A stretch of 64,000 nt of DNA from a virus. The position numbers and the translations under genes are program-made. Shown here piece after piece: positions 5,441 through 57,725 of the stretch. The stretch's first letter is position 1. The number at the start of each line of letters is the position of its first letter. The notes below the pieces were generated by a model that was not told the origin of the DNA, ran no database searches, and was given only the letters and a program-made list of their open reading frames with translations. The stretch lies in the IMG/VR virus record IMGVR_UViG_3300034415_000120; one strand, 5' to 3'.

Positions 5441-5617
5441 ATGAAGTGGATTAAGAGAAAGATTATTATGTGGCTATTTGGGTATGATTTTCCACGGTAT
5501 GTAAGGCAGTTTTATAAAGAGCAGGATCAGATTATCAAAATGTATTCTGAAATGTTGCGAGAGGAAGAAAAACTTCTTAGATGGCTTAAATTAGCAGAAG
5601 AAAAGAGGTGTAAATAG
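5441..5617 (+). CDS. small basic hypothetical protein (MKWIKRK...)
   Basis: Internal ATG at 5441 has a better RBS (GAGGAA) than the ORF-track start at 5390. Confidence 0.35.
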   Translation: MKWIKRKIIMWLFGYDFPRYVRQFYKEQDQIIKMYSEMLREEEKLLRWLKLAEEKRCK

Positions 5618-7798: not shown

Positions 7799-9025
7799 GT
7801 GAATGCAAATATAAAAGTAAAAAGATGTGAACAAGTAATTATTAGAAAGAATCATCCTAAATTTAAAATGATAGATCAACAGTGCTTTTGCTCTAAGAAT
7901 TTGTATAATGAAGCAAATTATGTATTACGTCAAGAATTTATAAACAATGATAAATACATAAGCTATTATGATATGAATAGAGAATTTAAAACACATGAGA
8001 ATTATAAACTTACATTCAGTCAACCTGCAAATTGTACTTTAAGATTGTTGGATAAAAACTGGAAATCTTATTTTAATGCAATTAAAGATTGGGGTAAAAA
8101 TCCCAATAAATATTTAGGTAAACCAAAACTTCCAAAATACTTAAAGAAAGACGGAAGGTTCATATGGATGATTCCAAATAATCAACTTCATTATAACTAT
8201 GAAAAGGGGACGATTCATATAAGTAATCGTTTAGTAAATGATTATGATTGGAAATGTCGTTGCTTAGGCAGAATAATTCAAGTTAGATTTGTTCCAAGAG
8301 GATCTTGTTATGTGATGGAAATTATCTATGAGACGGAAATTCCAAATACAAATAAAAAACCTAAGAGTATAGCAGCTATTGATTTAGGCGTAAATAATCT
8401 TGTAACTATGACAAATAATATCGGATTAAATCCAATTATTATTAACGGCAAGGGAATTAAAAGCATAAATCAGTGTTATAATAAAAGACTTGCAAAAGAA
8501 AGATCAATGCTGAAAATACGACATAATAAAGATTGGTCAAAGAAATTAGATATAATTACTTTTAAAAGATTTCAGAGAATAAAGAATTACATGCACAATA
8601 CAAGTCATTACATTGTAAGTTGGTGTATTGAAAATAACATTGACACATTAGTAGTTGGTAAAAACAACAAATGGAAACAAGAATCTGAGATGAATAAGAA
8701 ATCTAATCAGAATTTTATAATGATTCCGTACCAGATATTATTACAACAACTTAAATATAAGTGTGAAAATGTTGGAATTAATTACATTGAGCAAGAAGAA
8801 AGTTATACATCTGGAACAAGTTTCTTAGATGAAGAAAATCCAATTAAAGAGAATTATAATAAGAATAGACGTATTCAAAGAGGATTATTCAAAAGTAATT
8901 CTGGGCTATTAATTAATAGTGATGTAAATGGATCATTTCAGATTATGAAAAAAGTATTCCCAAATGCGATTAGTCGATATGGGATAGAGGGTGTTCTAAC
9001 CCCTATAGTTATAAATGTGGCATAA
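7799..9025 (+). CDS. tnpB: TnpB-like (IS200/IS605 OrfB family) protein, degenerate. RuvC-I Asp retained (AAIDLGV); RuvC-II Glu replaced (DTLVVGKNN vs canonical ..vvED.L..); the Zn-finger CxxC...CxxC is absent; the RuvC-III region (NSDVNGSFQI) is retained.
   Basis: Direct alignment against the intact TnpB at 25637 in this window. Overall TnpB architecture, with YTS motif ESYTSGT and DxNAAxNI-like SDVNGSFQI. Confidence 0.75.
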   Translation: MNANIKVKRCEQVIIRKNHPKFKMIDQQCFCSKNLYNEANYVLRQEFINNDKYISYYDMNREFKTHENYKLTFSQPANCTLRLLDKNWKSYFNAIKDWGKNPNKYLGKPKLPKYLKKDGRFIWMIPNNQLHYNYEKGTIHISNRLVNDYDWKCRCLGRIIQVRFVPRGSCYVMEIIYETEIPNTNKKPKSIAAIDLGVNNLVTMTNNIGLNPIIINGKGIKSINQCYNKRLAKERSMLKIRHNKDWSKKLDIITFKRFQRIKNYMHNTSHYIVSWCIENNIDTLVVGKNNKWKQESEMNKKSNQNFIMIPYQILLQQLKYKCENVGINYIEQEESYTSGTSFLDEENPIKENYNKNRRIQRGLFKSNSGLLINSDVNGSFQIMKKVFPNAISRYGIEGVLTPIVINVA

Positions 9026-9844: not shown

Positions 9845-10405
9845 ATGTTAATTAGAAGTCAAAATGGAACAAAATTAATAGATATGTCTAGTAAAACAAT
9901 ATCAGTCGATAAATCAGGTTCAACTTTACCATATAAAAATGGATATGATGTTAAAATTTTATATGCAAATAGTTCTGTTTGGCTAGGAGAATATGATAGC
10001 AAAGAAAAAGCATTTAAAGTATTGGATATGATTGGCGAAGCACATCATTATTTTGAATCAGGATTTGAGATGGAAGTTTTTCAGATGCCACAAAATGATG
10101 ACGTTAATGTATCTGGAGTGAAATGTAAAGAAAATCCCACATTAACCGCAAATGAAAAATTATTTCTTGATTTGATTAAAGAAGAATATACATATATTGC
10201 AAGAGACAAAGATGGTCTATTGGCGGTTTATCCTAGAAAGCCTGAGAAAAAATTGACATATTGGTTACTTGCAGATAGCCCAAATACTGCAAGAGATTTA
10301 TATACTAGAGCATTAGATGTTGGTTTTGACTTCATTAAATGGGAAGACGAAGAACCTTGGTTAATTGAAAATTTGAAGAAGTTGGAGTTGAAAGATGAAA
10401 AATAG
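9845..10405 (+). CDS. hypothetical protein, paralog A (conserved C-terminal module ..FLD..EY.YI..DK...L.V......FDFIKWEDEEPWLIENLKKLELKDE)
   Basis: Shares about 80 aa of C-terminal similarity, and nucleotide similarity 10330-10400 vs 10745-10815, with the next gene. Confidence 0.5.
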   Translation: MLIRSQNGTKLIDMSSKTISVDKSGSTLPYKNGYDVKILYANSSVWLGEYDSKEKAFKVLDMIGEAHHYFESGFEMEVFQMPQNDDVNVSGVKCKENPTLTANEKLFLDLIKEEYTYIARDKDGLLAVYPRKPEKKLTYWLLADSPNTARDLYTRALDVGFDFIKWEDEEPWLIENLKKLELKDEK

Positions 10406-10820
10406 AGAAAAGTTTGCAAAAGAGATTTTAGATATTGCGTGTGGGGGTGGAGCATTTGCAGTTACAAAGTCAAGTAAAATTACCTCTTGCAATCAGATTA
10501 GCTGTGAGAAATGTATATTTCGTTCTGAAAAAACTTGCAGAATTAAGCGATATGAATGGTCACAATCAGAATATGTAGAGAAGCATACCATCACATTAAG
10601 AGAAAAGAAGTTTCTGGATATACTTTCACCAGAGTACAAATATATTACAAAAGATAAGAACAATGAACTTTATGTACACGATAAAAATTGGGTTTCAAAT
10701 GATAGAGATCATAATATATCAACAAATATTTTTGGTAATATGTTTGATTTTATTAAATGGGAAGATGAAGATCCTTGGTTAATTGAGGATTTGAAAAAAC
10801 TGGAGTTGAAAGATGAATGA
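10395..10820 (+). CDS. hypothetical protein, paralog B (Cys-rich N-terminus + the same C-terminal module)
   Basis: C-terminus FDFIKWEDEDPWLIEDLKKLELKDE; N-terminus CGGGAF...CNQISCEKC. Confidence 0.5.
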   Translation: MKNREKFAKEILDIACGGGAFAVTKSSKITSCNQISCEKCIFRSEKTCRIKRYEWSQSEYVEKHTITLREKKFLDILSPEYKYITKDKNNELYVHDKNWVSNDRDHNISTNIFGNMFDFIKWEDEDPWLIEDLKKLELKDE

Positions 10821-11142
10821 TTTAGATGATTATGAAGAAGATCCATATGACTACTGTTATGAATGTGGTGGATATGGTGATGATTATTATACGGACGAAG
10901 ATGGAGAATTAGTCTGTAGATGTCTTGAATGTCCTATGAATCCTAATTCGTGGGATGATTAATACATATCAAGTAAATTTCTATGGGTGATCACCCAAAT
11001 TATTTCCAAGAACAAAGAAATATTATTTTTTATCGGTCGGTTGCAAACGTCCGATTTACGTAGCATTGCAGAGTTTATAGAAAGGAATTTAGGTAAATTC
11101 TAGGATAAAGTAGTTGTGCAACTCCCTATAAAATAAGGGAAT

Positions 11143-12126
11143 TTGAGTCATTTAGTTGAAAATAATATTTTATCAGAGAATGGATTAAGAGTATTAAGTC
11201 TATTTGATGGTATATCATGCGGTAGAATTGCATTGGATAGAGCTGGGTTTGAAATAAATGATTATTATGCTTATGAGATTGAACAAAATGCAATCAAGAT
11301 AAGTAGATATAATTACCCATCAATTCATCAATGTGGTGATGTATTTGAGGAAGATTTTAGTAAATATGAAGGTATTGATTTGTTGATTGGAGGCAGTCCA
11401 TGCACCTTTTGGTCAAGTTCCAAGTGTTCAAAAACGGCAAAACATAAGAGGGAAGTTAAACCAGAGGGTGATGGATGGAATTTATTTATGGAATATGTAA
11501 GAGCATTACACGAATCTAAACCAAAATATTTTCTATATGAGAATAATTATAGGATTGATGATTCTATACAAGCTGCAATTACAGAAAATTTAGGTGTTGA
11601 ACCTGTTCTTCTCGATAGTCAGTTAATTTCGGCTCAAAGACGCAAGAGATTATATTGGACAAATATTCCAATAAAAGGAGAACCAGAAGATAAAGGAATT
11701 TTAGTAAAGGATGTGATTACAGATGATTATGAACTAATCAAACATTTTGATGATAGGATAAAAAATACATTAGTCAAATGTGAGAATTACATAAAGTATG
11801 ATTTGAGTGGTAAAGGACATTATTCTCAACAGGATAGGATGTATTTTCTTGATAATAAAGCACCAACTGTTCCGAGATGTAGAACTGAAACTAAATTTAA
11901 TGTTTGGTTAGGTGGTGAAACATATAAGAAAACTTGTCCTGTTGAGATAGAAAGACTTCAAACATTACCAGATGGATATACAGAATTTGGTATGAATGAA
12001 AATGGAAGTGTTGTAAAAATGCCTAAGACAAGAAGATTTGAAGCTATTGGAAATGGTTGGACTGTTGATATGATAGCTTGGATATTTAGTTTTATGAAGG
12101 AGAAATATAATGCAGATAACAGCTAA
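11143..12126 (+). CDS. DNA (cytosine-5)-methyltransferase
   Basis: Motif I LSLFDGISCG; PC motif GGSPCTFWSS; ENV-like YFLYENN; motif VIII QRRKRLYW. TTG start. Confidence 0.8.
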   Translation: MSHLVENNILSENGLRVLSLFDGISCGRIALDRAGFEINDYYAYEIEQNAIKISRYNYPSIHQCGDVFEEDFSKYEGIDLLIGGSPCTFWSSSKCSKTAKHKREVKPEGDGWNLFMEYVRALHESKPKYFLYENNYRIDDSIQAAITENLGVEPVLLDSQLISAQRRKRLYWTNIPIKGEPEDKGILVKDVITDDYELIKHFDDRIKNTLVKCENYIKYDLSGKGHYSQQDRMYFLDNKAPTVPRCRTETKFNVWLGGETYKKTCPVEIERLQTLPDGYTEFGMNENGSVVKMPKTRRFEAIGNGWTVDMIAWIFSFMKEKYNADNS

Positions 12127-12976
12127 AAGTTATTTTAGTGGAGCAGGAGGGATGGATTTAGGAATAGAGGAATCTGGAATTAACATAATTGAATCATATG
12201 AGATAGATAAAAAGTGTTGCGATACTCTGAGAAAGAATTTTAAACATCATGTAAATGAAGCGGATATTACACAGATTACCGTTCTTGATCAGAATGACGC
12301 AGATGTATATATTGGTACATTTCCATGCACACGGTATTCAACTATTGCTGATATTTCAGGCACAAGAACAGGAGATGATTTATTTTTACATTTCTTTAGA
12401 CATATTGCTTTGGCTCAACCAGAAATGTATGTAGTAGAAAATGTTCCTGGAATGCTTAAATTTAAAGTAGTTATGGAAGCATTAACAAAACTACCTGATT
12501 ATTATGTAAGAGTTGAATGTCCTGTTAATGCAAATATGTGGCTACCACAAGAAAGAAAACGATTGATTCTAATTGGAAGTAAAAAACCATTTACCAATTT
12601 TGATTATCCTGATTCTCAACCGTTAAGGCTTAAAGATATTATTGAAAAGGATGCTTCGATTGATATTCCACAATATGTATATAATCGCATCAATGGAAAG
12701 TATAGAGATAAACCAATTATTTCAGATCCAGACAATGATGATCTTGCTCCAACTTGTGTAGCACATTACGCAAAAGATAAAGGAACAAGATTGATTAAAG
12801 ACGGACAGAGAATTAGACCATATACAGTAAAAGAATATGCTAGATTACAAGGCTTTCCAGATTGGTTTGAGTTTTGTGGAACAGATAATGATGCTTATAG
12901 ACAAATTGGTAATGCTGTTGCTGTTCCAATGGGACGTTGGATTGGTAAACAGATTGTAAAATATTTTAATTCATAA
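12110..12976 (+). CDS. DNA (cytosine-5)-methyltransferase (second; overlaps the previous by 17 nt)
   Basis: Motif I YFSGAGGMDLG; PC motif GTFPCTRYS; ENV VVENVPGM; QERKRLILIG. Confidence 0.8.
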   Translation: MQITAKSYFSGAGGMDLGIEESGINIIESYEIDKKCCDTLRKNFKHHVNEADITQITVLDQNDADVYIGTFPCTRYSTIADISGTRTGDDLFLHFFRHIALAQPEMYVVENVPGMLKFKVVMEALTKLPDYYVRVECPVNANMWLPQERKRLILIGSKKPFTNFDYPDSQPLRLKDIIEKDASIDIPQYVYNRINGKYRDKPIISDPDNDDLAPTCVAHYAKDKGTRLIKDGQRIRPYTVKEYARLQGFPDWFEFCGTDNDAYRQIGNAVAVPMGRWIGKQIVKYFNS

Positions 12977-13500
12977 TAAGAAAAGGAGAAAACACTATGG
13001 GAATTACAAGCAAACAGACAGGAAAATTCAGAGGAATGATGAGAAAAATCGAGAATGAGCAGCTTAAAATTAAAGCCGATTCCGTAAAACGTAAGAAGAA
13101 AGAAGATAAGAAAAATGCCTGATATTACAATGTGCCGTAGTAGTGACTGCCCTAAACGCAGTCATTGCTACAGGGTACAAGCCAAACCAGATAAATTGCA
13201 GAGTTATTCAGACTTCTCTGCTGAATGTTTTCAATACAATTTCTTGCGATTTTGGAGTATGAGTGAGGAAGTTGATAAGATGAAGGGTTGATTTCAAATG
13301 AGATGGTTAATCAATTATATACGAAGTTGTTTTTGTAAACATGGCTTGGAATTAATTTTTGATACTCAAGTACATGGTGAAAAATTAGATGGAAGTCGTT
13401 ATGAATATCCATTATATCGTGTAAAAACATATCGTTGTAAAAAATGTGGAATGGAGAAGAAATATAAGAGTAACAGTTGAAAAGACTAATGAGGTGAATA

Positions 13501-13809
13501 ATGTCTAATTATATTTGTTTAACGTCATCAAAGTTATCAAGATACAAACAATATATGTATGTTGATTGTAAGAATTATCTTGCTGATGATTTATTCATAA
13601 AAAATAAAATCACGGTAAAATTTGAAGGTGATTTCACAAAGGATAATTCTGATTATATTTTTGTGTATTGTAAAGTAAAGAAAAAAGATCATGATAAATT
13701 CATTAAGACTCTTGGAGAATTGAAAAATAAGATGTTAATTATGGGACATTCTGATTACGAATCATTTTGTGAAAAACAGATTAATAAGATTTTGTGCAAA
13801 TTAAATTAG
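13501..13809 (+). CDS. hypothetical protein
   Basis: ORF with RBS GAGGTGAATAATG. Confidence 0.45.
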   Translation: MSNYICLTSSKLSRYKQYMYVDCKNYLADDLFIKNKITVKFEGDFTKDNSDYIFVYCKVKKKDHDKFIKTLGELKNKMLIMGHSDYESFCEKQINKILCKLN

Positions 13810-13862
13810 TAAAATTCGAGTTGAAAGAAATCTTTCATAGCATGGATAAATAGGAGGTAATT

Positions 13863-14405
13863 ATGGTATATGGAGTATTTGGTGGTTGTTATAGCGACTG
13901 GTATATAGTTGGTTATTTTGGTAATCGTGATGATGCAGAAAAATATTGTTGTATCTCCAATGCTGATTATTATGTAGAACCATTAAAAAATTTAACAAAT
14001 GAAAAAGATCTGTCGAAAGTAGAATTAAAGTATACTCATGAGGTTCTTTTTGATTATGATAAAAACAATAAATATACTATGAGAAAAGAACCAGATAGAT
14101 ATAGATATTATATAGATAATGAATTGCATTGCAATAGCATAACGAAAAGTAATAGACTGTGTAACTGGATAAAATTTGAAATTAATATTAGTCATAATGA
14201 TAGAAAACTTGCTGAAAAAATTGCACAAGATTATTTGGCAGAATTACGTTCTTACGGTGATGGTAAAATTTATGATGAAAATATTAAGTTGATGAATGAA
14301 AAATTTGTAAGACCTTTTAAAGAAAAAGAAAGATTAGAAAAAGAGAAACAGCTAAGAGAAAAAGAGTTAGCTGAATTACAAAGGTTAAAAGAAAAGTATG
14401 AGTAA
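13863..14405 (+). CDS. hypothetical protein with C-terminal coiled coil (KEKERLEKEKQLREKELAELQRLKEKYE)
   Basis: ORF with RBS TAGGAGGTAATTATG. Confidence 0.5.
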   Translation: MVYGVFGGCYSDWYIVGYFGNRDDAEKYCCISNADYYVEPLKNLTNEKDLSKVELKYTHEVLFDYDKNNKYTMRKEPDRYRYYIDNELHCNSITKSNRLCNWIKFEINISHNDRKLAEKIAQDYLAELRSYGDGKIYDENIKLMNEKFVRPFKEKERLEKEKQLREKELAELQRLKEKYE

Positions 14406-14476
14406 AGAACTAAAATGGTGTAAGCAATTCATTAAATGTAGCAGGTTATCAATGTATCATAAGAAAAGGAGAAACA

Positions 14477-14812
14477 ATGATAAACGTGGTTGAAATGAGA
14501 TTAGTTAAAATTGTAGATATGAAACTCAAAAAATCAGATAAGCAATTCTTGTTGGATGTTAAATTAGATACTGGGGATTCATATGTTTATGTTAGAGATA
14601 TTGAAATTGCCAATATGGACAATGTATTAAATAGTGTAAAGATTGAACAAGATAACTTAACTGGCGATTGTATGATTTCAAGATTGTGCAAAAATAATTT
14701 ATGGGTACTTAATAATACCATAGAACATGAACAAAAACCAAAAGAAATGACATTAGAAGATATTGAAAAAGCTCTTGGATATCCTGTGAAGATTGTTGAG
14801 GATAAGAAATGA
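14477..14812 (+). CDS. hypothetical protein
   Basis: ORF with RBS AAGGAGAAACAATG. Confidence 0.45.
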   Translation: MINVVEMRLVKIVDMKLKKSDKQFLLDVKLDTGDSYVYVRDIEIANMDNVLNSVKIEQDNLTGDCMISRLCKNNLWVLNNTIEHEQKPKEMTLEDIEKALGYPVKIVEDKK

Positions 14813-14981
14813 ATAAATTAACTATGTATATTATATGGATTTTATGTGCAGTAATTTCTATCGGGGGAATGTTAATTACGAAAAATTCTGATACGGTTTG
14901 GTTTATGGTAATTCCTTTTGCGGTAATGTTTGCAGAAGATTTATGGAGTTGAAAAATTTATTTCAAGGAGAGAAATAATAC

Positions 14982-15197
14982 ATGATTAAATATATTTGTG
15001 ACTTATGTGGTAAAGAATCAGAGTATTTAGACAAATATTATATTCCAATGATGCATTCGGATGGTAAATTCAAATCAGTACAATTACATTTATGTGATGA
15101 TTGCTGTAATAGAATTGATTTATTCGCACATGATATAGTATCTAAGGGCATGGAGAAAAGACTGGACAGGTTGGTAAATGTAAATGATGATGAATGA
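14982..15197 (+). CDS. small Zn-ribbon protein (CDLCGK...CDDCC)
   Basis: ORF with RBS AAGGAGAGAAATAATACATG. Confidence 0.45.
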   Translation: MIKYICDLCGKESEYLDKYYIPMMHSDGKFKSVQLHLCDDCCNRIDLFAHDIVSKGMEKRLDRLVNVNDDE

Positions 15198-15558
15198 ATG
15201 GAGAAATCGGATATACCTACATCCACCAGATAAAATGAATGATTTATATTATAAAGTTTGTTGCTATTGGAACGCAAAGACTGAAATATATGATTCTATT
15301 TTAGCTGACAGTTATAGTTATCTATATGACACAATGTATATTTCAAATCCTAAACTTCGTGGCTATTCTGCCGAATATTCCCGTCAAATATTTTTGTTTT
15401 GTCAACACGTACTTATTTGTGAATGTGATAAACCGTTTGATGAAAACTTATGGAAGTATATAAATAACAATAGATATACTGCTCGTCAGTGGATGAAAGA
15501 ATATGGAAGATTAAAGTCTAATGGAGAATTAGATTTTATAGAACGATATAAACAATAA
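15184..15558 (+). CDS. hypothetical protein
   Basis: ORF overlapping the previous stop. Confidence 0.4.
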   Translation: MMMNEWRNRIYLHPPDKMNDLYYKVCCYWNAKTEIYDSILADSYSYLYDTMYISNPKLRGYSAEYSRQIFLFCQHVLICECDKPFDENLWKYINNNRYTARQWMKEYGRLKSNGELDFIERYKQ

Positions 15559-15580
15559 TAAATAAATAAAAGGAGATTTA

Positions 15581-16945
15581 ATGAATTACGAAGATTTTCT
15601 AAAACAAAAGGATTATATTCTGGAAAGTAGCGGATTTAATATTGATAAAGATAAATTAAATCCCATGCTATTTGACTTTCAGAAAGATGTAGTAAGATGG
15701 GCGTTAGCAAAAGGTAAAGCTTGTATTTTTGCAGAGTGTGGGCTTGGCAAAACGCCAATGCAATTATCATGGGCGCATCAAGTACATCTACATACGGGCG
15801 GTAAAGTTTTGATTCTTGCACCTCTATCGGTTGCGGATCAGACAAAGAGAGAAGCTGAAAAATTCCATTACAATGCAAAAGTATGTGAGAAACAGGAAGA
15901 TTGTATTGATGGAATTAATATTACAAACTATGAGAAACTAGATAAATTCGTAGCAAATGAATTTGTTGGAGTAGTCTTAGACGAGAGTTCAATTCTTAAA
16001 TCCTACACTGGTAAAGTGAGGACTTCTATTATCGAGAATTTCCAAAATGTTCCCTATAAATTAGCTTGTACTGCGACACCTGCTCCAAATGATTATATGG
16101 AGTTGGGAAATCATTCTGAATTTTGTGGAGTTATGACACGTTCAGAAATGTTATCAATGTTCTTTGTTCATGATGGTGGTCAAACATCTAAGTGGAGATT
16201 AAAAGGTCATGCAAAAGATGTATTTTGGCAATGGATGGCAAGTTGGTCTGTATTTATTGATAATCCATCAAATTTAGGATATGACGGTACAGATTATGAA
16301 TTACCTAATTTGAATATTTATGAAATTATAGTTGATGGAGATGAACCAATCACTGAATCACTTACATTAACAGAGCGTAGAAATGCAAGAAAAGATACTC
16401 TTGAATTAAGATGTCAAAAAGCAGCAGATTTAGTAAATAATTCAGATGAACAATGGTTAGCCTGGTGTGATCTTAATGCAGAAGGTGATAGATTAAATGA
16501 ACTGATTGAAGAAAGTAAAAACGTTCAAGGAAGTGATAAGAATAAATACAAGAGTGAAACAATGCTATCATTTTCTGATGAAAAATTAAAATGTCTTATC
16601 AGCAAGCCACAGCTCGCAGGCTACGGCATGAATTGGCAGAATTGCCACAATGTTATTTTTACTGGACTTTCTGATAGTTTTGAGCAGTATTATCAGGCTG
16701 TAAGAAGATGTTGGCGTTTTGGTCAGACTCAAGAAGTTAATGTATACATAATCATTTCAGCAAAAGAAGGTTGCGTAAAAGAGAATATTGAAAGAAAACA
16801 GTTAGATTTTATCACTATGAGGGATGCAATGATTAATCTAACTAAAGAAATTACTAAGAAAGAGCTTAAATCAACGTGTAGGCTTACTACACCATATGAA
16901 GCAAATACAACAATGAAATTACCAAACTGGGAGGAATTCAAATAA
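15581..16945 (+). CDS. SNF2/DEAD-like family helicase (compact, 454 aa)
   Basis: Motif I AECGLGKT; motif II VVLDESSILK; motif III CTATPAPN; motif VI QAVRRCWRFGQ. Confidence 0.75.
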   Translation: MNYEDFLKQKDYILESSGFNIDKDKLNPMLFDFQKDVVRWALAKGKACIFAECGLGKTPMQLSWAHQVHLHTGGKVLILAPLSVADQTKREAEKFHYNAKVCEKQEDCIDGINITNYEKLDKFVANEFVGVVLDESSILKSYTGKVRTSIIENFQNVPYKLACTATPAPNDYMELGNHSEFCGVMTRSEMLSMFFVHDGGQTSKWRLKGHAKDVFWQWMASWSVFIDNPSNLGYDGTDYELPNLNIYEIIVDGDEPITESLTLTERRNARKDTLELRCQKAADLVNNSDEQWLAWCDLNAEGDRLNELIEESKNVQGSDKNKYKSETMLSFSDEKLKCLISKPQLAGYGMNWQNCHNVIFTGLSDSFEQYYQAVRRCWRFGQTQEVNVYIIISAKEGCVKENIERKQLDFITMRDAMINLTKEITKKELKSTCRLTTPYEANTTMKLPNWEEFK

Positions 16946-17853
16946 TGATGAACGTAATTGATCAAGCAGTAGCAAACAGATATGCACTTTATCATGGAGA
17001 TAGTGTAGAAATTACTAAGGAGATTCCAGATAATAGCATCCACTACACTATCTTTTCCCCACCATTTTCACAGTTATACGTGTACTCTAATTCAGATAGA
17101 GATATGGGTAATTGTAAAGGGGATGAAGAATTTTACAATCATTTCAAATATCTTGCAAAAGAATTATATAGAATTACAATGCCTGGACGACTTCTGAGTT
17201 TTCACTGTATGGATTTACCTCTTATGAAATCAAGAGATGGTGTAATTGGACTAAAAGATTTTCCTGCGCTCATGCTTAAAATCTTTCAGGATTGTGGATT
17301 CATCTACCATAGTAAAGTAACTATTTGGAAGAATCCTGTTACAGAAATGCAAAGAACAAAAGCACTTGGGCTTTTACATAAACAGATTAAGAAAGATAGT
17401 AGTATGAGTCGTCAAGGACTTCCAGATTATGTGATTACGGTTAGGAAGCCCGGTGATAATCCAGAACGAGTTGAACACACAAATGAATCATTTCCTGTTA
17501 ATGTATGGCAAAATTACGCTTCACCTGTATGGATGGACATTAGACAGAGTGATACATTACAGAGAAAATCAGCAAGATCTGAACAAGATGAGAAACATAT
17601 TTGTCCATTACAGCTTGAAGTAATTCAGAGATGTATTGAATTATGGACAAATCCAAACGATATTGTGTTTGATCCGTTTGGTGGAATTGGTTCTACTCCA
17701 TATGTTGCACTTAAATTAGGAAGAAGAGGAATTGCAAGTGAATTAAAAGATAGCTATTTTGAGCAGTTAAAGAAAAATGTAGAGTCTGTGGCTGCCGAAG
17801 AACCAGAAGTATTTCCAGTTGGAGAAAAGAGTATTGAGGATGTAGTCGCATAA
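16945..17853 (+). CDS. beta-class DNA N6-adenine/N4-cytosine methyltransferase
   Basis: Motif IV IFSPPF precedes motif I FDPFGGIGSTPYVALKLGRRGIASEL (PF01555-like order). Start overlaps the helicase stop (TAATGATG). Confidence 0.8.
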   Translation: MMNVIDQAVANRYALYHGDSVEITKEIPDNSIHYTIFSPPFSQLYVYSNSDRDMGNCKGDEEFYNHFKYLAKELYRITMPGRLLSFHCMDLPLMKSRDGVIGLKDFPALMLKIFQDCGFIYHSKVTIWKNPVTEMQRTKALGLLHKQIKKDSSMSRQGLPDYVITVRKPGDNPERVEHTNESFPVNVWQNYASPVWMDIRQSDTLQRKSARSEQDEKHICPLQLEVIQRCIELWTNPNDIVFDPFGGIGSTPYVALKLGRRGIASELKDSYFEQLKKNVESVAAEEPEVFPVGEKSIEDVVA

Positions 17854-21612: not shown

Positions 21613-21807
21613 ATGGAGAATAAGATGAGTGAAACAGTTAAAGCAAGGAATAGAAATACAATGAAAGAAGCAAAATCAAAAGCCGAAAGAATTGGATTTG
21701 TACCTTCTGCGTGTTTGGAATGTCTGATGTATCAAGCTGGATTAAGACCAGGTACAAATAATCATTGTAGTAAATGTGTCGATGGAATAGGTATATTTCG
21801 TGGATAA
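21613..21807 (+). CDS. small hypothetical protein
   Basis: ORF. Confidence 0.35.
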   Translation: MENKMSETVKARNRNTMKEAKSKAERIGFVPSACLECLMYQAGLRPGTNNHCSKCVDGIGIFRG

Positions 21808-21841
21808 AATGTTGTTTTCATGGATAAGAAAGGAAAAATCT

Positions 21842-22744
21842 ATGCCAATAAAAGATGATTTAGGAACTAGAATGAAAACTTTTTATGAGGAAATTCCAAA
21901 AACAAAACTTATGCGCCGCTGCCCAGTTGCTATCAGAATTGACGGAAAATCATTTCATACATTTACAAGAAAATTTGAGAAGCCATTTGATGAAGTTTTA
22001 ATTGAATCTATGCAGAAAACAATGAAATATCTTTGTGAAAATATTCAAGGATGTGTATTGGGATATACCCAGTCTGATGAGATTACATTGATTCTTGTTG
22101 ATTATAAGAAATTAAATTCTTCTGCATGGTTTGATTATGAAGTTCAGAAAATGACTTCTATATCAGCTTCTATGGCAACACTAGCCTTCAATGATTTTTT
22201 TAAAAAAGGTATAACAAAAGAAAATAGTGCCTTTACTGATGAATGGTTGGACAATGGAGATTTTAATCCAAAATATAAAGATGAAGAATTAAATAAATTA
22301 TGGATAACTCATAAAAGAGCATCCGAAAAAGGTGCAATGTTTGACGCACGTTGCTTTAATATTCCGAAAGAAGAAGTCACAAATCTTATTTACTGGCGAC
22401 AATTAGACGCTTCTCGTAATTCAATTCAAATGGTAGGTCGAGCTAATTTTTCTCATAAAGAACTTCAAAATAAATCATGCAACCAGATTCAAGATATGTT
22501 AATGGAACAGAAAGGTATTAACTGGAACGATCTTCCTATATATCAAAAAAGAGGAAGTTGTTGTATTAAAATTAAAGATAAAATTGATGAAGTGATGGTA
22601 AACGAACAACAAGAATTTGGAGAAGATAAGGTAACAAAGATAGTTTCCATAGAAAAGAGTCATTGGATCATTGATAAAGAAATTCCTATTTTTAAAGGTG
22701 ATAATAGAAAATATATTGATAAGTTGATTAATGTAGGAGAATAA
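21842..22744 (+). CDS. Thg1-like protein (tRNA-His guanylyltransferase family, 3'-5' nucleotidyltransferase)
   Basis: VAIRIDGKSFHTFTRKFEKPFDE matches the Thg1 motif ([24 protein letters not shown]). CVLGYTQSDEITLIL matches IVIAYGQSDEYSFVF. LIYWRQLDASRNS matches YLSWRQADCHINN. Both catalytic Asp are present. The alternative start at 21800 is less favoured; an RBS precedes 21842. Confidence 0.8.
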   Translation: MPIKDDLGTRMKTFYEEIPKTKLMRRCPVAIRIDGKSFHTFTRKFEKPFDEVLIESMQKTMKYLCENIQGCVLGYTQSDEITLILVDYKKLNSSAWFDYEVQKMTSISASMATLAFNDFFKKGITKENSAFTDEWLDNGDFNPKYKDEELNKLWITHKRASEKGAMFDARCFNIPKEEVTNLIYWRQLDASRNSIQMVGRANFSHKELQNKSCNQIQDMLMEQKGINWNDLPIYQKRGSCCIKIKDKIDEVMVNEQQEFGEDKVTKIVSIEKSHWIIDKEIPIFKGDNRKYIDKLINVGE

Positions 22745-25636: not shown

Positions 25637-26758
25637 GTGGAAAGAGCATTTAAGTATAGAATTTATCCAACAAAGAAACAACAAAAGTTAATTCAGAAAA
25701 CATTTGGATGTTGTCGATTTGTATATAATTATTATCTCAATATGAGGAAAGAATCATATGAAAAAGATAAAATATCTGTAACTTATAATATGTGTTCAAA
25801 AGATATGACAAGTTTGAAGAAACAATTGGAATGGTTGAAAGAACCAGATAAAGACGCTTTGCAAAAATCATTGAAAGATTTAGATATGGCATATCAGAAG
25901 TTCTTTAAAGAACATACAGGATATCCAAAATTCAAATCTAAAAAGACCAGATATAAGTCTTATAGAACTAGCTGTACAAATAACAATATCAGATATGATA
26001 ACAGAAAGATCAAACTTCCAAAAATCGGATGGATTAAAACCAAGGATAAACAAATTCCACAAGGTAAAATATTGAATGCTACAATTTCACAAGAACCAAA
26101 TGGACATTATTACTGTTCATTATGTTGTTCTGATGTAGAATTTCTACAATTCACAAAAACAGATAAAAATATTGGTATTGACTTAGGAATCTGTGATTTT
26201 GCAATATTTTCTGATGGAACGAAAATTGAGAATCCAAGATTTTATGAAAAATCAGAAAACAAACTCGTTAAATTACAACGTGAATTATCAAGAAAAACAA
26301 TTGGTAGTAATCGTTGGGATAAAGCAAGAATTAAAGTTGCAAATTTACAAAAACATATTTCAAATCAACGTAAAGATTTTTTACAAAAATTAACCACAGA
26401 TATTGTAAAGAATTACGATGTGATCTGCATTGAGGATTTAGATATTATATCTATGAAAGAAACAGATTCTACTATTCGTAATAAACGAGTTGGTGATGTT
26501 TCATGGTCAGAGTTCAGAAGAATGCTTACATATAAAACTCAATGGTATGGAAAAGAATTATCTGTCATAGGTAGATTCTATCCATCTTCTCAGATTTGTC
26601 ATATTTGTGGAAATAAGGATGGGAGAAAATCAGAAGATATTAGATTCTGGACTTGTCCTAATTGTAAATCTGAATTAGACAGAGATATAAACGCAGCAAT
26701 AAATATTCTCAATGAAGGTTTGAGAATAAGAACCGTAGGAACTACGGGGATAGCCTAG
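25637..26758 (+). CDS. tnpB: TnpB (IS200/IS605 OrfB family RNA-guided endonuclease), apparently intact
   Basis: N-terminus MERAFKYRIYPTKKQQKLIQKTFGCCRFVYNYYL. RuvC-I GIDLGI; RuvC-II CIEDLDI; Zn finger CHICGN...CPNCKS; RuvC-III DRDINAAINIL. Confidence 0.85.
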   Translation: MERAFKYRIYPTKKQQKLIQKTFGCCRFVYNYYLNMRKESYEKDKISVTYNMCSKDMTSLKKQLEWLKEPDKDALQKSLKDLDMAYQKFFKEHTGYPKFKSKKTRYKSYRTSCTNNNIRYDNRKIKLPKIGWIKTKDKQIPQGKILNATISQEPNGHYYCSLCCSDVEFLQFTKTDKNIGIDLGICDFAIFSDGTKIENPRFYEKSENKLVKLQRELSRKTIGSNRWDKARIKVANLQKHISNQRKDFLQKLTTDIVKNYDVICIEDLDIISMKETDSTIRNKRVGDVSWSEFRRMLTYKTQWYGKELSVIGRFYPSSQICHICGNKDGRKSEDIRFWTCPNCKSELDRDINAAINILNEGLRIRTVGTTGIA

Positions 26759-29615: not shown

Positions 29616-30260
29616 GTGAAAGTATTAGGATTATTTGCAGGTACAAGATCTATTGAAAAAGCATTTGAATCCAGAGGACATGAAGTTTTTAGTGTAGAAT
29701 GGAATAAAGATTTTAAAAACATTGATTTATATGATGATGTTAATAATATTACAGCGAAAGATATATTAGAGAAATTTGGGCATCCAGATGTAATCTGGGC
29801 GAGTCCTGATTGTACAACATTTTCTATTGCGGCTATTAGTCATCATAGAAGAAAGAATCCAGAAACAGGTAATCTTGATCCTGTAAGTGATTATGCGAAA
29901 TTCTGTGATAAAACTGATCAACACGTTCTATCCTTAATCAAGGAATTAAACCCAACTTTTTATTTTATTGAAAACCCTAGAGGTGGTATGAGAAAGATGA
30001 CATGGATGCAAGGTTTACCACGTTATACGGTGACTTATTGCAAATACGGAGATGACAGGATGAAACCTACTGATATTTGGACAAATCATCCTAATCCTAA
30101 ATTCTTACCTATGTGTAAAAATGGTGATCCATGTCATGTTTCTGCTCCAAGAGGTAGTAGAACTGGAACACAAGGACTAAAAGGTAGTGTTGAGAGAAGT
30201 AAAATACCACAGAAATTGTGTGAGCATATTGTAGATATTTGTGAAGAATATATTAAGTAA
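29616..30260 (+). CDS. small DNA (cytosine-5)-methyltransferase-like protein (214 aa)
   Basis: Motif I VLGLFAGTRS; PC motif SPDCTTFSIA; ENV-like YFIENPRGGM. Short for a canonical C5-MTase. GTG start. Confidence 0.55.
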   Translation: MKVLGLFAGTRSIEKAFESRGHEVFSVEWNKDFKNIDLYDDVNNITAKDILEKFGHPDVIWASPDCTTFSIAAISHHRRKNPETGNLDPVSDYAKFCDKTDQHVLSLIKELNPTFYFIENPRGGMRKMTWMQGLPRYTVTYCKYGDDRMKPTDIWTNHPNPKFLPMCKNGDPCHVSAPRGSRTGTQGLKGSVERSKIPQKLCEHIVDICEEYIK

Positions 30261-30305: not shown

Positions 30306-30662
30306 GTGCATCCAAGCAAATTTTTTAATGAATGTAATTTAAGGACAGGAATTGATACGTTTGAAATATACGATAAAGAACTAAAAGATAAACTATCTTC
30401 GGTTCATCCATTGAATTTTCTTAAAACAAAAGTTACATTGCCTGTATATCAAATTGATCTAAGCTACATGACAGACAAAGGTAATTATAAAAATGTCACA
30501 AGATATGCAGTAATGGATTCAGAAGCAGATGATGAATACATGGATTTCTGGGCTGATATGTTTACAAGAGATTACAATAACAATCACCCTGAACATCAAA
30601 TGATTGATTGTAAAATCAATAGCATAGAGAAAATTTGTGAAGCTGTGCTGCCGATTGGCTAG
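30306..30662 (+). CDS. hypothetical protein
   Basis: ORF (GTG start). Confidence 0.4.
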   Translation: MHPSKFFNECNLRTGIDTFEIYDKELKDKLSSVHPLNFLKTKVTLPVYQIDLSYMTDKGNYKNVTRYAVMDSEADDEYMDFWADMFTRDYNNNHPEHQMIDCKINSIEKICEAVLPIG

Positions 30663-30842: not shown

Positions 30843-31859
30843 TTGCTGAGTAAAGCCAATAGTATAGAAGAATTATTAGAAAGTTGCCCTAAGAATCAAA
30901 CAATTGGAGATAACCTGGTTAGGGCATGGTCAAAGATTAATAGTAGTAAGTATAAAAATATTCTATGTAGCATCTCAGGTGGTTCTGATAGTGATGTAAT
31001 GTTAGACATTGTGTGGAGATGCGATAAAGACAATAAAGTTACATATGTGTGGTTTGATACAGGTCTTGAATATCAAGCTACAAAAGATCATTTGAAATAT
31101 CTTGAAGAGAAATATAACATAGAGATTCATCCATATAAAGCAATTAAACCAATTCCTTCGTCCTGTAAAAAATATGGACAACCATTCATTTCTAAGCAAG
31201 TCAGCGAATTTATCCAACGATTACAAGCACATAATTTCAAGTGGGAAGATGAAGATTTTGATACCTTGATGAAAAAATATCCAAAATGTAAATCTGCACT
31301 AGCATGGTGGTGTAATGCAAAAGGCAATGGAAGTAGTTTTAATATTTCTCGTAATAAATATCTGAAAGAATTTATGGTTGCAAATCCACCCACGTTTAAA
31401 ATATCAAATAAGTGTTGTAAATATGCTAAGAAAGATGTTATGCATAAATGTATTTCAGAGTCCAATTATGATCTTGACATATATGGTGTAAGAAAAGCAG
31501 AAGGTGGTTCAAGAGCAACTGCGTATAAATCATGCTTTGATGAAACAGATGCAGGATGTGATAATTATAGACCTTTATTCTGGTATAAAGATTCCGACAA
31601 GATTGATTATGAAGGAGCTTATTTTGTTGAGCATAGTAATTGTTACACTGAATATGGATTAAAACGTACTGGATGCGCTGGTTGTCCATTTGGTAGAGAT
31701 TTTGAATATGAATTAGAAGTTATTCGGAAATATGAATCGAAATTATTTAAAGCGGTGAATAATATATTTGGAGAATCTTATGAGTATACAAGAAGATATA
31801 GAGAATTTTGTAAACAGATGAAGGAGAAAGAAAAGGATAACAATGAAATGTGTAAGTAA
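30843..31859 (+). CDS. PAPS reductase-family PP-loop protein (phage 'phosphoadenosine phosphosulfate reductase'-like)
   Basis: PP-loop SISGGSDSD; GVRKAEGGSRA motif; C-terminal Cys cluster CAGCPFG. TTG start. Confidence 0.65.
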   Translation: MLSKANSIEELLESCPKNQTIGDNLVRAWSKINSSKYKNILCSISGGSDSDVMLDIVWRCDKDNKVTYVWFDTGLEYQATKDHLKYLEEKYNIEIHPYKAIKPIPSSCKKYGQPFISKQVSEFIQRLQAHNFKWEDEDFDTLMKKYPKCKSALAWWCNAKGNGSSFNISRNKYLKEFMVANPPTFKISNKCCKYAKKDVMHKCISESNYDLDIYGVRKAEGGSRATAYKSCFDETDAGCDNYRPLFWYKDSDKIDYEGAYFVEHSNCYTEYGLKRTGCAGCPFGRDFEYELEVIRKYESKLFKAVNNIFGESYEYTRRYREFCKQMKEKEKDNNEMCK

Positions 31860-56254: not shown

Positions 56255-57133
56255 ATGACAAGAGCAGATTTATTATTAATGAATGATATTCGTAATATTC
56301 TTGCAAATGGAACAAAAGACGAAAATCCTCGTCCAAAATATGAAGATAGTACACCAGCTCATACATATTTTGTGAATCATGTTGTGAGAACTTATAATCT
56401 TCAAACTGAATTTCCAATTTGTACATTACGTTCTATTGCGTGGAAAAGTGCGATTAAGGAATTGCTATGGATATACCAAGATCAGAGTAGTTCATTACAT
56501 TTATTAAAAGATAAATATAATGTTAATTATTGGGACGCATGGGAATCTAAAGATATTCCAGGAACAATAGGTGTTAGATACGGTGAAACAGTAAGAAAAC
56601 ATAATCTTATAAACAATTTAATTGCTGATATTAAAGAAAATCCATATGGACGTAGACATATTATGTCTTTGTGGCAAGAAGAAGATTTTAAAGAATCTGA
56701 CGGACTTATGCCATGTGCATTCCTTACAATCTGGAATGTAAGAGGTGAATATCTTGATATGTGTCTCATTCAGAGAAGTGGAGATATGCTTACTGCTTCG
56801 GGTGCAGGTGGAGTTAATGAAGTACAGTATGCTTGTTTACAGATGATGGTTGCGAAAGCTACTGGATATAAGCCAGGTAAGTTCACACATTTTGTAGCAA
56901 ATGAACAGATTTACGATCGTCACATTGACGCAGCTAATGAATTACTTAACAGAGCAAAGCAACAGAAATTAGATTTATCTACATCTAATGGACATTATAA
57001 TTATGAATTTGAATCAATCAAAATGAATTTCAATCCTAAGTCTGATAATTTTTATGATTTCTCAATCGAAGATTTTTCTCTTGAAAATTATAATCCGATT
57101 AAGCCACAGATCAAACTTGAATTAGGCATTTAA
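56255..57133 (+). CDS. Thymidylate synthase (ThyA) family enzyme, divergent; dUMP-type pocket (Asn retained); candidate dTMP synthase or dUMP hydroxymethylase
   Basis: ELLW motif; RRHIMSLWQ (cf. SRRIIVSAWN); catalytic Cys in LMPCAF (cf. LPPCH); IQRSGD (cf. YQRSCD); VNEVQY (Asn of the N177 position); NEQIYDRH (cf. GDTHLY). Confidence 0.7.
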   Translation: MTRADLLLMNDIRNILANGTKDENPRPKYEDSTPAHTYFVNHVVRTYNLQTEFPICTLRSIAWKSAIKELLWIYQDQSSSLHLLKDKYNVNYWDAWESKDIPGTIGVRYGETVRKHNLINNLIADIKENPYGRRHIMSLWQEEDFKESDGLMPCAFLTIWNVRGEYLDMCLIQRSGDMLTASGAGGVNEVQYACLQMMVAKATGYKPGKFTHFVANEQIYDRHIDAANELLNRAKQQKLDLSTSNGHYNYEFESIKMNFNPKSDNFYDFSIEDFSLENYNPIKPQIKLELGI

Positions 57134-57143
57134 GAATAGGAGC

Positions 57144-57725
57144 GTGATTATTATACATACAGTATATTGTGTATTAGGAAGAACAGGATCAGGTAAATCA
57201 ACAATTACAAAAGAAGCATCAAAGCAATTGAATATGAGTATCTTACGTTCATATTCTACACGACAATATCTACGTAAAGGTGAAACAAAAGAAAATTCAG
57301 ACCATATATTAATTTCACCAGACGAAGTGGAGAAACATCGTAACGATATGATTGCTTATACTGATAGAGTAGGATATTGTAACTTCGCAACAAAACAACA
57401 ACTCTTAGATAATGACTTCTACATTATCAATCCCACAGGATATTACGAATTAAAACTCAAAACAAAAGATATGGATATTGAATTAGTAACCATTATGGTG
57501 AATGTTCCATATAATGACTTACGAAAAAGAGCAGAGAAACGTGGAGATTATGATGCTTGGCAAGCTAATTACATCAAAGAAAGTGAAGAATTTTCAAGTT
57601 TTGAGAAATCCAATCTTATTGATTACTTTGTATTGAATGATAGAAGTCTTGAAGAATCTGTTGCGAAAATGGTACGTGTAATCAATAAGGACAGAGCAAA
57701 ACGAGGTATCACAGATGAGAAATGA
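57144..57725 (+). CDS. P-loop NTPase, putative (deoxy)nucleoside monophosphate kinase
   Basis: Walker A GRTGSGKST; small size; position between the ThyA-like and HAD genes. GTG start. Confidence 0.45.
   Translation: MIIIHTVYCVLGRTGSGKSTITKEASKQLNMSILRSYSTRQYLRKGETKENSDHILISPDEVEKHRNDMIAYTDRVGYCNFATKQQLLDNDFYIINPTGYYELKLKTKDMDIELVTIMVNVPYNDLRKRAEKRGDYDAWQANYIKESEEFSSFEKSNLIDYFVLNDRSLEESVAKMVRVINKDRAKRGITDEK

Follow-up and report, generated by a model that had tools for sequence, protein, structure and literature searches.

The window analysed here, the 64,000 nt of the virus record IMGVR_UViG_3300034415_000120 (all coordinates are those of the whole window), carries four separate DNA-methyltransferase modules inside 19 kb. 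Two are C5-cytosine DNA methyltransferases, termed C5a and C5b, encoded by overlapping genes. The third is a beta-class amino-methyltransferase whose gene directly follows that of an SNF2-type ATPase, and the fourth is a 214-amino-acid (aa) C5-methyltransferase-like protein lacking a recognition domain (Table 1). An initial annotation, made from the DNA letters and their open reading frames (ORFs), had described the region as a dense anti-restriction arsenal. The genes that it listed all lie on the plus strand at the positions it gave, with the domain content it assigned to them, and its picture of a methyltransferase-rich accessory region was borne out. The explanation that we favour is that the phage uses the four modules to methylate its own DNA against restriction, that the ATPase and the amino-methyltransferase act as one machine and that the small enzyme is catalytically competent. 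Taken as a whole, we hold this explanation to be fairly probable; the anti-restriction purpose, read from context, is plausible.

The 454-aa ATPase has the core motifs expected of an SNF2 protein (Walker A GLGKT, Walker B LDESS, motif III TATP, motif VI QAVRRCWRFGQ), with ~140 residues between the N-lobe and Helicase_C. Its top PDB matches were all SNF2-family proteins (Rad26, SRCAP, DDM1, SsoRad54, CHD1L and Snf2), and PF00176 was present in its close homologs and in fused relatives. Neither a nuclease nor any additional domain was found in it with Pfam, NCBIfam or PADLOC; phrog_62 matches residues 24–428, which leaves no room for a nuclease. The partner methylase of 302 aa matches PF01555 over residues 33–277 and is permuted, with motif IV (SPPF, residues 38–41) ahead of motif I (FDPFGGIGST, residues 242–251). 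Its best solved relative is Thermus TTHA0409 (2zie), which aligned over its full length and carries SPPY. In the published comparison, N4CMT has SPPY where CcrM has DPPY (PMC10406627). The SPPF motif predicts N4-cytosine specificity for the 302-aa methylase, and is taken here as a lead, not as proof. M.PvuII carries SPPF as well. The helicase stop codon and the methylase start codon share one base (TAATG), and a GGAGG lies 11 nt upstream. The stop/start overlap reported by the initial annotation is thus real, as TAA/ATG; the ATGATG that it quoted exists, but is two consecutive Met codons.

The linkage of the two genes was assessed in 80 diverse IMG/VR loci, in which the helicase was 44–79% identical, and in 53 loci from bacterial genomes (prophages). 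Wherever there was room for it, a methylase gene lay downstream of the helicase gene, on the same strand in the IMG/VR loci (79 of 79) and likewise downstream in the bacterial genomes (52 of 52). The same arrangement was seen in seven of seven metagenome contexts. Among the 79 IMG/VR pairs, 31 were fused, 33 were adjacent or overlapping and 15 were separated by more than 60 bp, mostly 70–451 bp. The gap was 198–451 bp in L113, L114, L117–L120, L122–L124, L126 and L162; spacing of this length suggests the insertion of a small ORF between helicase and methylase. The phage family phrog_16 (986 positions) covers both proteins, the helicase matching positions 250–627 and the methylase 800–915. This hinted at fused relatives, which do exist in isolated phages. 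Flavobacterium phage VK42 encodes a fused protein of 729 aa, residues 5–440 of which are 46% identical to the full-length window helicase (E 3e-129), while its methylase part is 50% identical. Gp78 of Arthrobacter phage Faja, annotated ‘DNA helicase/methylase’, is fused and 842 aa long, and in both proteins the Pfam helicase domains are N-terminal to PF01555. Pseudomonas phage vB_PaeP-D14I encodes an 865-aa ‘SNF2 family’ protein whose fused layout came from tblastn; no Pfam match was obtained for it. Split, overlapping pairs were found in Synechococcus phage S-LBS1 (A50/A49), Mycobacterium phage Crumble (gp61/gp62) and Dulem virus 39.

The phage helicase/methylases of phrog_16 and phrog_67 thus agree with the window pair in both domains and in their order, the SNF2-type ATPase coming ahead of a beta-class PF01555 methylase that has SPPF. 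Both halves are 46–50% identical to VK42, and the stop/start overlap also occurs in the known split forms. The window differs from the fused phage relatives in that its halves are separate genes joined at TAATG, and in its most likely host, a gut member of the Bacillota. The Walker B motif LDESS was present in 84 of 88 loci, and motif VI (Q..RR..RFGQ) was also kept. In 87 homologous pairs motif IV of the methylase was SPPF in 84, SPPY in one and SIPF in two, and neither DPPY nor NPPY occurred. This conservation of LDESS, motif VI and SPPF indicates that both activities are under selection. The pair occurs in many gut prophages and in phages whose hosts span five or more bacterial phyla. Its constant linkage in the loci with room, together with the fused single-gene versions, upholds the earlier suggestion that the two genes belong together, and indicates that helicase and methylase are an obligate two-gene unit and a true functional pair. 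A C5 methyltransferase was present within 3 kb of the pair in only three of the 80 loci, and the idea of a general island combining the pair with C5 methyltransferases was dropped on this count. PAPS-reductase-like genes recur near the pair elsewhere (L011, L014 and gp66 of Mycobacterium phage Crumble).

C5a and C5b each hold motifs I, IV (with the catalytic Cys), VI, VIII and X in order. In C5a these are FDGISCG, PCTFWS, ENN, QRRKR and GNGW, and residues 16–315 match positions 2–319 of the 324 in the PF00145 profile. C5a scored 76.9 bits against TIGR00675, under the cutoff of 100.65. Its best solved relatives were DNMT3A/3B/3C and DRM2 (best E 2.5e-19; range ~1e-19 to 1e-14), compared with E-values of 1e-6 to 1e-4 for the bacterial M.HaeIII and M.HhaI structures (1e-6 for M.HaeIII). 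By these matches C5a belongs to a DNMT3-like subfamily, nearer to the eukaryotic de novo enzymes than to bacterial M.HaeIII, and its best phage relatives in tblastn were only 39–52% identical. In C5b the motifs are FSGAGG, PCTRYS, ENV, QERKR and GNAV. C5b scored 166 bits against TIGR00675, over the cutoff; its top PDB matches were 3g7u and M.HaeIII, and its recognition region is short. Its closest phage counterparts include methyltransferases of Enterococcus phage VEsP-1 and Bacillus phage PK1, at 74–75% identity, and a cyanophage enzyme shares 60%; C5b is a HaeIII-like, widely exchanged short methyltransferase. The two genes overlap by 17 nt, and C5b has the ribosome-binding site AGGAG. The initial annotation had named two overlapping C5 methyltransferases; on their motifs both are complete, and they are probably ordinary autonomous 5-methylcytosine (5mC) methyltransferases.

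Comparison with MT835469, the closest database record to the window, showed that C5a and C5b lie on a cassette of 1.9 kb. In blastn, window positions 10395–11029 and 12954–13284 matched adjacent stretches of MT835469, in which ~37 bp replaces the 1.9 kb; the limits of the cassette are set by the points at which homology ends and restarts. In tblastn searches with C5a and C5b, MT835469 was not among the close matches. In another relative (L022) the C5a homolog is kept, C5b is not and the gene order differs. The left edge of the cassette carries a hairpin-containing element (AGTTGTGCAACT / TCCCTATAAAATAAGGGA) that overlaps the ribosome-binding site and TTG start of C5a. At the empty site of MT835469 (L001, ~12900–12940) this 43-nt element is inverted; possible roles for it are those of a recombination hot spot and of a bidirectional terminator.

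The 214-aa protein matched PF00145 in its N-terminal half only (profile positions 1–110 of 324; E 1.4e-5; 25.2 bits against a cutoff of 22), and matched phrog_757 (‘DNA methyltransferase’) end to end (E 1e-43). It has the catalytic-domain fold with its catalytic Cys, the Glu of motif VI and the acids that bind S-adenosylmethionine (AdoMet or SAM). Its motifs are LFAGT (I), E28 (II), D41 (III), SPDC with Cys66 (IV), ENP with Glu119 (VI) and a VIII-like YCKYG..RMKPT. Conservation of at least 90% among 64 diverse members was found for Gly9, Asp41, Ser63-Pro64-Cys66 and Glu119-Asn120-Pro121, for Tyr141-Cys142-x-Tyr144 ... Lys150-Pro151-Thr152, which replace motif VIII, and for Cys167, Cys173, His174, Gly184 and Pro198. 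In the AlphaFold2 model (predicted local distance difference test [pLDDT] 96.5; predicted template-modelling score [pTM] 0.92), residues 157–190 formed a well-defined 34-residue coil with a TGTQG loop, followed by two C-terminal helices. Between motifs VIII and X the protein has neither a recognition domain nor motif IX; the 34 coil residues stand in the place of the ~100 or more residues that these take up in canonical M.HhaI, M.HaeIII and DNMT3A/B. The protein further differs from canonical C5 enzymes in having ENP for ENV and YG..R.KPT for Q.R.R. The model thus agrees with the earlier suspicion that a target-recognition domain is lacking, while both the model and the conservation indicate that the AdoMet-binding fold, whose loss would have spoken against an enzyme of this kind, is kept. 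As modelled, the AdoMet-binding catalytic domain is complete and the recognition domain is missing. The conservation of Cys142 and of Cys167, Cys173 and His174, the last three of which lie in the coil, makes a zinc site probable.

Proteins of this kind are abundant. A word-indexed search returned at least 8,000 matches, the best 120 of which were 78–96% identical and mostly ~215 aa long; an exhaustive search of 50%-identity representatives gave 2,518 clusters at E ≤ 1e-3 and 323 at E ≤ 1e-30. Isolated carriers include the Bacillus cereus-group myophages Bcp1, Deep Blue, JBP901 and Bc431v3 (63–67% identity), and the methylase of Haloferax tailed virus 1 (HFTV1) is 35% identical. The phrog_757 relatives (Bc431v3 orf172 and others, annotated ‘C-5 cytosine-specific DNA methylase I’) match over the full length and have the same length of ~215 aa. 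Only the neighbourhood differs, since the Bc431v3 gene directly follows that of a 340-aa C5 methyltransferase, whereas the window gene stands alone. Longer relatives of ~530–630 aa (P0241, P0243, P0245, P0252, P0277, P0292, P0293 and P0300) might have been versions bearing a recognition domain, but this was ruled out because their additional sequence consists of Hint and LAGLIDADG inteins. The inteins are inserted at two hot spots, directly before Cys66 or before Thr152, and so mark these two residues independently as critical catalytic positions.

The fifth methyltransferase counted in the initial annotation, the 259-aa protein at 5617, is probably not a DNA methyltransferase. Its N-terminal AdoMet-binding segment alone matched generic Pfam methyltransferase models, and weakly. 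A motif scan of the protein found no DPPY-like amino-methyltransferase motif and no PC motif. Its AlphaFold2 model (40 homologs; pLDDT 90.5) matched small-molecule O-, N- and C-methyltransferases and, among RNA enzymes, the bacterial Hen1 domain, the cmo5U tRNA methyltransferase and METTL6, with no DNA methyltransferase among the top 60 fold matches. As the protein has neither the motifs nor the fold matches, the DNA methyltransferases number four and not five. A combined motif and phmmer scan of the 85 plus-strand ORFs of at least 80 aa gave no DNA methyltransferase beyond these four.

In a survey of 8,848 high-quality gut phages, 34% carried a methyltransferase, and 72% of those carried one only (PMC10477858). 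On these counts four DNA methyltransferases place the phage in the upper tail, which is uncommon; the number had earlier been called unusual, and by the measure of the survey this holds for four enzymes rather than five. Taken singly, each module is common in phages, and all four are gene families already annotated in phage databases.

Avoidance of restriction sites was assessed over the whole window against counts expected from a maximal-order Markov model. GGCC and CGCG were absent (16 and 17 expected), as were ATCGAT (9 expected) and CCATGG (8 expected), while CCGG occurred 4 times instead of 19, GATC 114 times instead of 258 and GAATTC 3 times instead of 35. GGNCC was not observed either. 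The phage therefore combines palindrome avoidance with several methyltransferases, which fits the anti-restriction reading, and the near-total avoidance of several 4-bp and 6-bp palindromes together with four modules indicates heavy restriction pressure from the hosts of the phage. Replacement of cytosine at the nucleotide level would make C5 methyltransferases pointless. It was rejected, since the thymidylate-synthase homolog at 56255–57133 (323 bits against a ThyA equivalog cutoff of 327) is most simply read as an ordinary ThyA. A guanylate-kinase-like nucleotide kinase gene (57144–57725) lies right after it.

The favoured explanation may be set out as follows. The region would belong to the mosaic accessory arm of a phage of ~177 kb that infects gut Bacillota, and would have accumulated four independent modules; its accessory nature is suggested by the absence of the cassette from MT835469 and by the rearranged gene order in relatives. 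The most likely shared job of the modules is to methylate phage DNA after replication and so block cleavage by host restriction enzymes. C5a and C5b would act autonomously, on a cassette gained or lost as a unit. We propose that the SNF2-type ATPase and the SPPF methylase are two physically coupled halves of one machine, in which the ATPase would move or anchor a methylase dimer along double-stranded DNA without unwinding it, by analogy with ATP use by Type III Mod2-Res, and that the pair would thereby methylate N4-cytosine quickly and at every site of the phage genome. The 214-aa protein, its recognition domain replaced by a short zinc-knuckle loop, is proposed to be catalytically competent and would probably act alone or as a homo-oligomer, on a short or relaxed target.

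Several points weigh against this explanation. The N4-cytosine assignment rests on one motif, and the solved relatives of the methylase align mainly over motif I and mix N6-adenine and N4-cytosine enzymes. In the small family, motif I retains its first glycine only. The absence of GGCC and CGCG means that the phage relies on site avoidance too, and does not reveal the targets of the methyltransferases. The small gene adjoins a canonical C5 methyltransferase gene in Bc431v3, in 331- and 446-kb contigs and in ~15% of viral loci, so that cooperation between the two is possible in some contexts. Our literature searches yielded neither methylomes nor biochemical results on any of the proteins discussed: no published activity was located for the proteins of the Faja, VK42, D14I, S-LBS1 or Crumble type, no experimental characterisation of the SNF2/SPPF-methylase pair or of a single-domain C5 methyltransferase, and nothing specific on a C5 methyltransferase without a recognition domain or on the HFTV1 methylase. 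Lastly, the pair usually lies among SSB, RecT, RdgC, VRR-NUC and replication genes, so that it may act in replication or recombination, or in epigenetic control within the phage.

That last point leads to the first of three other accounts of the pair, in which it would serve phage DNA metabolism by marking replicated DNA, by remodelling forks or recombination intermediates or by controlling packaging or expression, with the methylase as a recognition or signalling module. In many phages the neighbours also include genes for a single-strand annealing protein and a replisome organiser, and an identity of 46–50% across phages of five bacterial phyla suits a core function better than a host-specific countermeasure. 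The strict conservation of the methylase catalytic motifs, however, argues for real methyl transfer, and the window has replicative helicase, polymerase, RecJ and RecD-like genes of its own at 41.7–51 kb; we consider this account unlikely. Far less credit can be given to the view, suggested by the initial annotation, that the pair is a split version of P1 DarB, which would make it a virion-packaged polyvalent anti-restriction protein protecting DNA in cis. DarB too pairs a DNA methylase with a SWI2/SNF2-type ATPase in a mobile element, and such pairings are a recurrent theme in phages, plasmids and conjugative elements, for which ATP-dependent tracking on DNA coupled to protective methylation has been proposed (PMC5512222). 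In DarB-type proteins, however, an EcoKI/TaqI-like adenine methylase is joined by its own C-terminus to the SNF2 ATPase (Iyer et al., 2017; PMC5512222). DarB itself has 2255 aa, is packaged in the virion and carries a gamma-class N6_Mtase/Eco57I domain (145–290) N-terminal to SNF2-rel (849–911) and Helicase_C (1455–1517), whereas the window pair has the reverse domain order and a beta-class PF01555 methylase. The true fused orthologs have 729–865 aa and run from helicase to methylase. Around the pair, both in the window and in its relatives, lie small early-type ORFs and genes for replication or recombination rather than for the head or virion. In BLASTP against P1 DarB the helicase gave a 33-residue Walker A match (E 0.026) and the methylase nothing meaningful. 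Homology with DarB was thus ruled out by BLASTP and by the Pfam comparison with P1 darB, and the split-DarB view is highly improbable. The pair instead fits an independent, differently built solution within the general methylase–SNF2 theme. Equally improbable is a phage-borne defence or exclusion system in the style of Type III restriction–modification or of DISARM/Zorya, with its nuclease encoded elsewhere. A dimeric beta-class amino-methyltransferase with a superfamily 2 (SF2) ATPase is the composition of the Type III enzymes EcoP15I and EcoPI, Mod2Res1 (PMC7544214, PMC10406627), and the helicase partly matches ZorD, DpdE and DrmD models and Pfam ResIII. But Type III Res has ~970 aa and a C-terminal nuclease, in the order mod then res, while the window ATPase is SNF2-type, has 454 aa consisting of the helicase core without a PD-(D/E)xK nuclease domain and is encoded ahead of the methylase. 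The PADLOC matches span 50–130 residues of models 750–1300 positions long, NCBIfam scores for the pair are far under their cutoffs and no third gene is conserved with the pair across loci. Membership of a defence system was rejected, as PADLOC yielded only partial SNF2 matches and generic Type II methyltransferase models.

For the 214-aa protein the competing view, raised in the initial annotation, is that it is not autonomous, being either an inert regulator resembling DNMT3L or a catalytic subunit that needs a DNA-recognition partner. Its occasional adjacency to a canonical C5 methyltransferase gene would suit a partner. Unlike in DNMT3L, though, Cys66, Glu119, the acids of motifs II and III and KPT are at least 90% conserved across the 64 members, and the inteins mark Cys66 and Thr152 as essential, so that a regulator in the sense of a catalytically dead protein is unlikely. 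A neighbouring partner is unlikely to be needed either: a canonical C5 methyltransferase was detected within 5 kb in ~11 of 75 viral loci (by a regular-expression motif scan that may miss divergent enzymes), leaving ~85% without one, and in the window the nearest lies at a distance of 16.6 kb, within the cassette missing from relatives. An obligate partnership with a canonical C5 methyltransferase was rejected on these counts, and we regard a non-autonomous role as quite unlikely. Returning to the favoured explanation, a stronger version of it would hold that the 214-aa family are autonomous single-domain DNA C5 methyltransferases in which a CCCH zinc knuckle and the TGTQG loop replace the recognition domain and, separately, that the SNF2/SPPF pair is a nuclease-free, ATP-driven motor for N4-cytosine methylation. 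We put this forward tentatively, as possible but more doubtful than the explanation in its general form.

A confident annotation of the window genes is possible, and it should not include the DarB label, tempting as this is. What retains interest is two widespread modules, the obligate SNF2/SPPF-methylase pair and the single-domain C5 methyltransferase. The pair was never split apart in 131 loci, spans at least five bacterial phyla and has an ATPase for whose contribution no account was located in the literature; it is thus a clean test case for SNF2-type motors driving DNA methylation, by the logic proposed for DarB. The same SNF2-motor logic is seen in eukaryotic DDM1/LSH-assisted methylation. 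If the stronger version is true, no known DNA C5 methyltransferase would be smaller than those of the 214-aa family, whose sequence specificity would be expected to be very short or nearly absent, which would make them a cytosine counterpart of M.EcoGII, a non-specific adenine methylase. Should the 214-aa protein be active alone, it would have value as a 5mC writer of minimal size or low specificity, and would show how small a protein can be and still flip a cytosine and methylate it.

Table 1. Methyltransferase-related features of the window.
Feature	Position	Strand	Basis
Class I SAM-dependent methyltransferase, 259 aa	5617..6396	+	Weak generic SAM-methyltransferase Pfam matches
C5a–C5b cassette span, not in MT835469	11029..12954		blastn of window against MT835469
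43-nt hairpin-containing element, left cassette edge	11106..11148		Sequence comparison with MT835469
C5a, C5-cytosine DNA methyltransferase, 327 aa, TTG start	11143..12126	+	PF00145 (E 7e-26), phrog_116
C5b, C5-cytosine DNA methyltransferase, 288 aa	12110..12976	+	PF00145 (E 6e-48)
SNF2-type SF2 ATPase/translocase, 454 aa	15581..16945	+	Pfam ResIII, Helicase_C, DEAD; phrog_62, phrog_16
Beta-class amino-methyltransferase, 302 aa	16945..17853	+	PF01555 (E 3e-21), phrog_67, C-terminal part of phrog_16
C5-methyltransferase-like protein without recognition domain, 214 aa, GTG start	29616..30260	+	PF00145, phrog_757

The window has a G+C content of ~30%, and its genes are essentially all on the plus strand. 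MT835469 is a 176-kb unannotated phage scaffold from human faeces; identity to it was 89–94% in the aligned parts, and a coverage of only 45–65% of the query indicates that the genomes are mosaic. No homolog of the 214-aa protein was detectable in MT835469 by tblastn, while a copy of its gene with 99% identity is present in an IMG/VR contig of 177 kb. The replication genes at 41.7–51 kb encode a DnaB-like helicase, RecJ, a DNA polymerase and a RecD/Dda-like helicase, and beyond them lie genes for thymidylate synthase, NrdD and an NAD-dependent ligase. Close helicase relatives sit in genomes of Lachnospiraceae, Blautia, Clostridium, Ruminiclostridium, Peptoanaerobacter and Veillonella, for which reason the host of the phage is most likely a gut member of the Bacillota, of the Clostridia type.

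Two TnpB-type genes (7799–9025 and 25637–26758) encode OrfB_IS605 plus a Cas12f1-like TNB domain, the second with an additional HTH_OrfB_IS605 domain. The TnpB of MT835469 is 48% identical and occupies a different site (L001, 13304–14500), which indicates that these elements are mobile within this phage lineage. A Thg1-like tRNA-His guanylyltransferase gene was found at 21800–22744, and Thg1 occurs with an RNA ligase near the helicase–methylase pair in a related contig (L016). Together with the Hen1 and tRNA-methyltransferase fold neighbours of the protein at 5617, Thg1 may point to a function in RNA repair or modification.

Two genes downstream of the small methyltransferase lies a gene for a PAPS-reductase-like PP-loop protein (30843–31859; PF01507, with weak BrxP and SspD matches); the 118-aa ORF between them (30306–30662) had no family match. 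A module of the small methyltransferase with the PAPS reductase was considered and rejected, as the two were linked only in the closest relatives (L023 and L028) among 80 loci. In one 588-aa protein (P0374) the small methyltransferase domain (residues 3–210) is fused to a region that weakly matches B12-binding and radical-SAM domains, and in several contigs, one of them 331 kb long, the small gene is followed ~5 kb downstream by a radical-SAM gene (L007–L009, ~11455–12351); fusion and neighbour may hint at further modification of 5mC.

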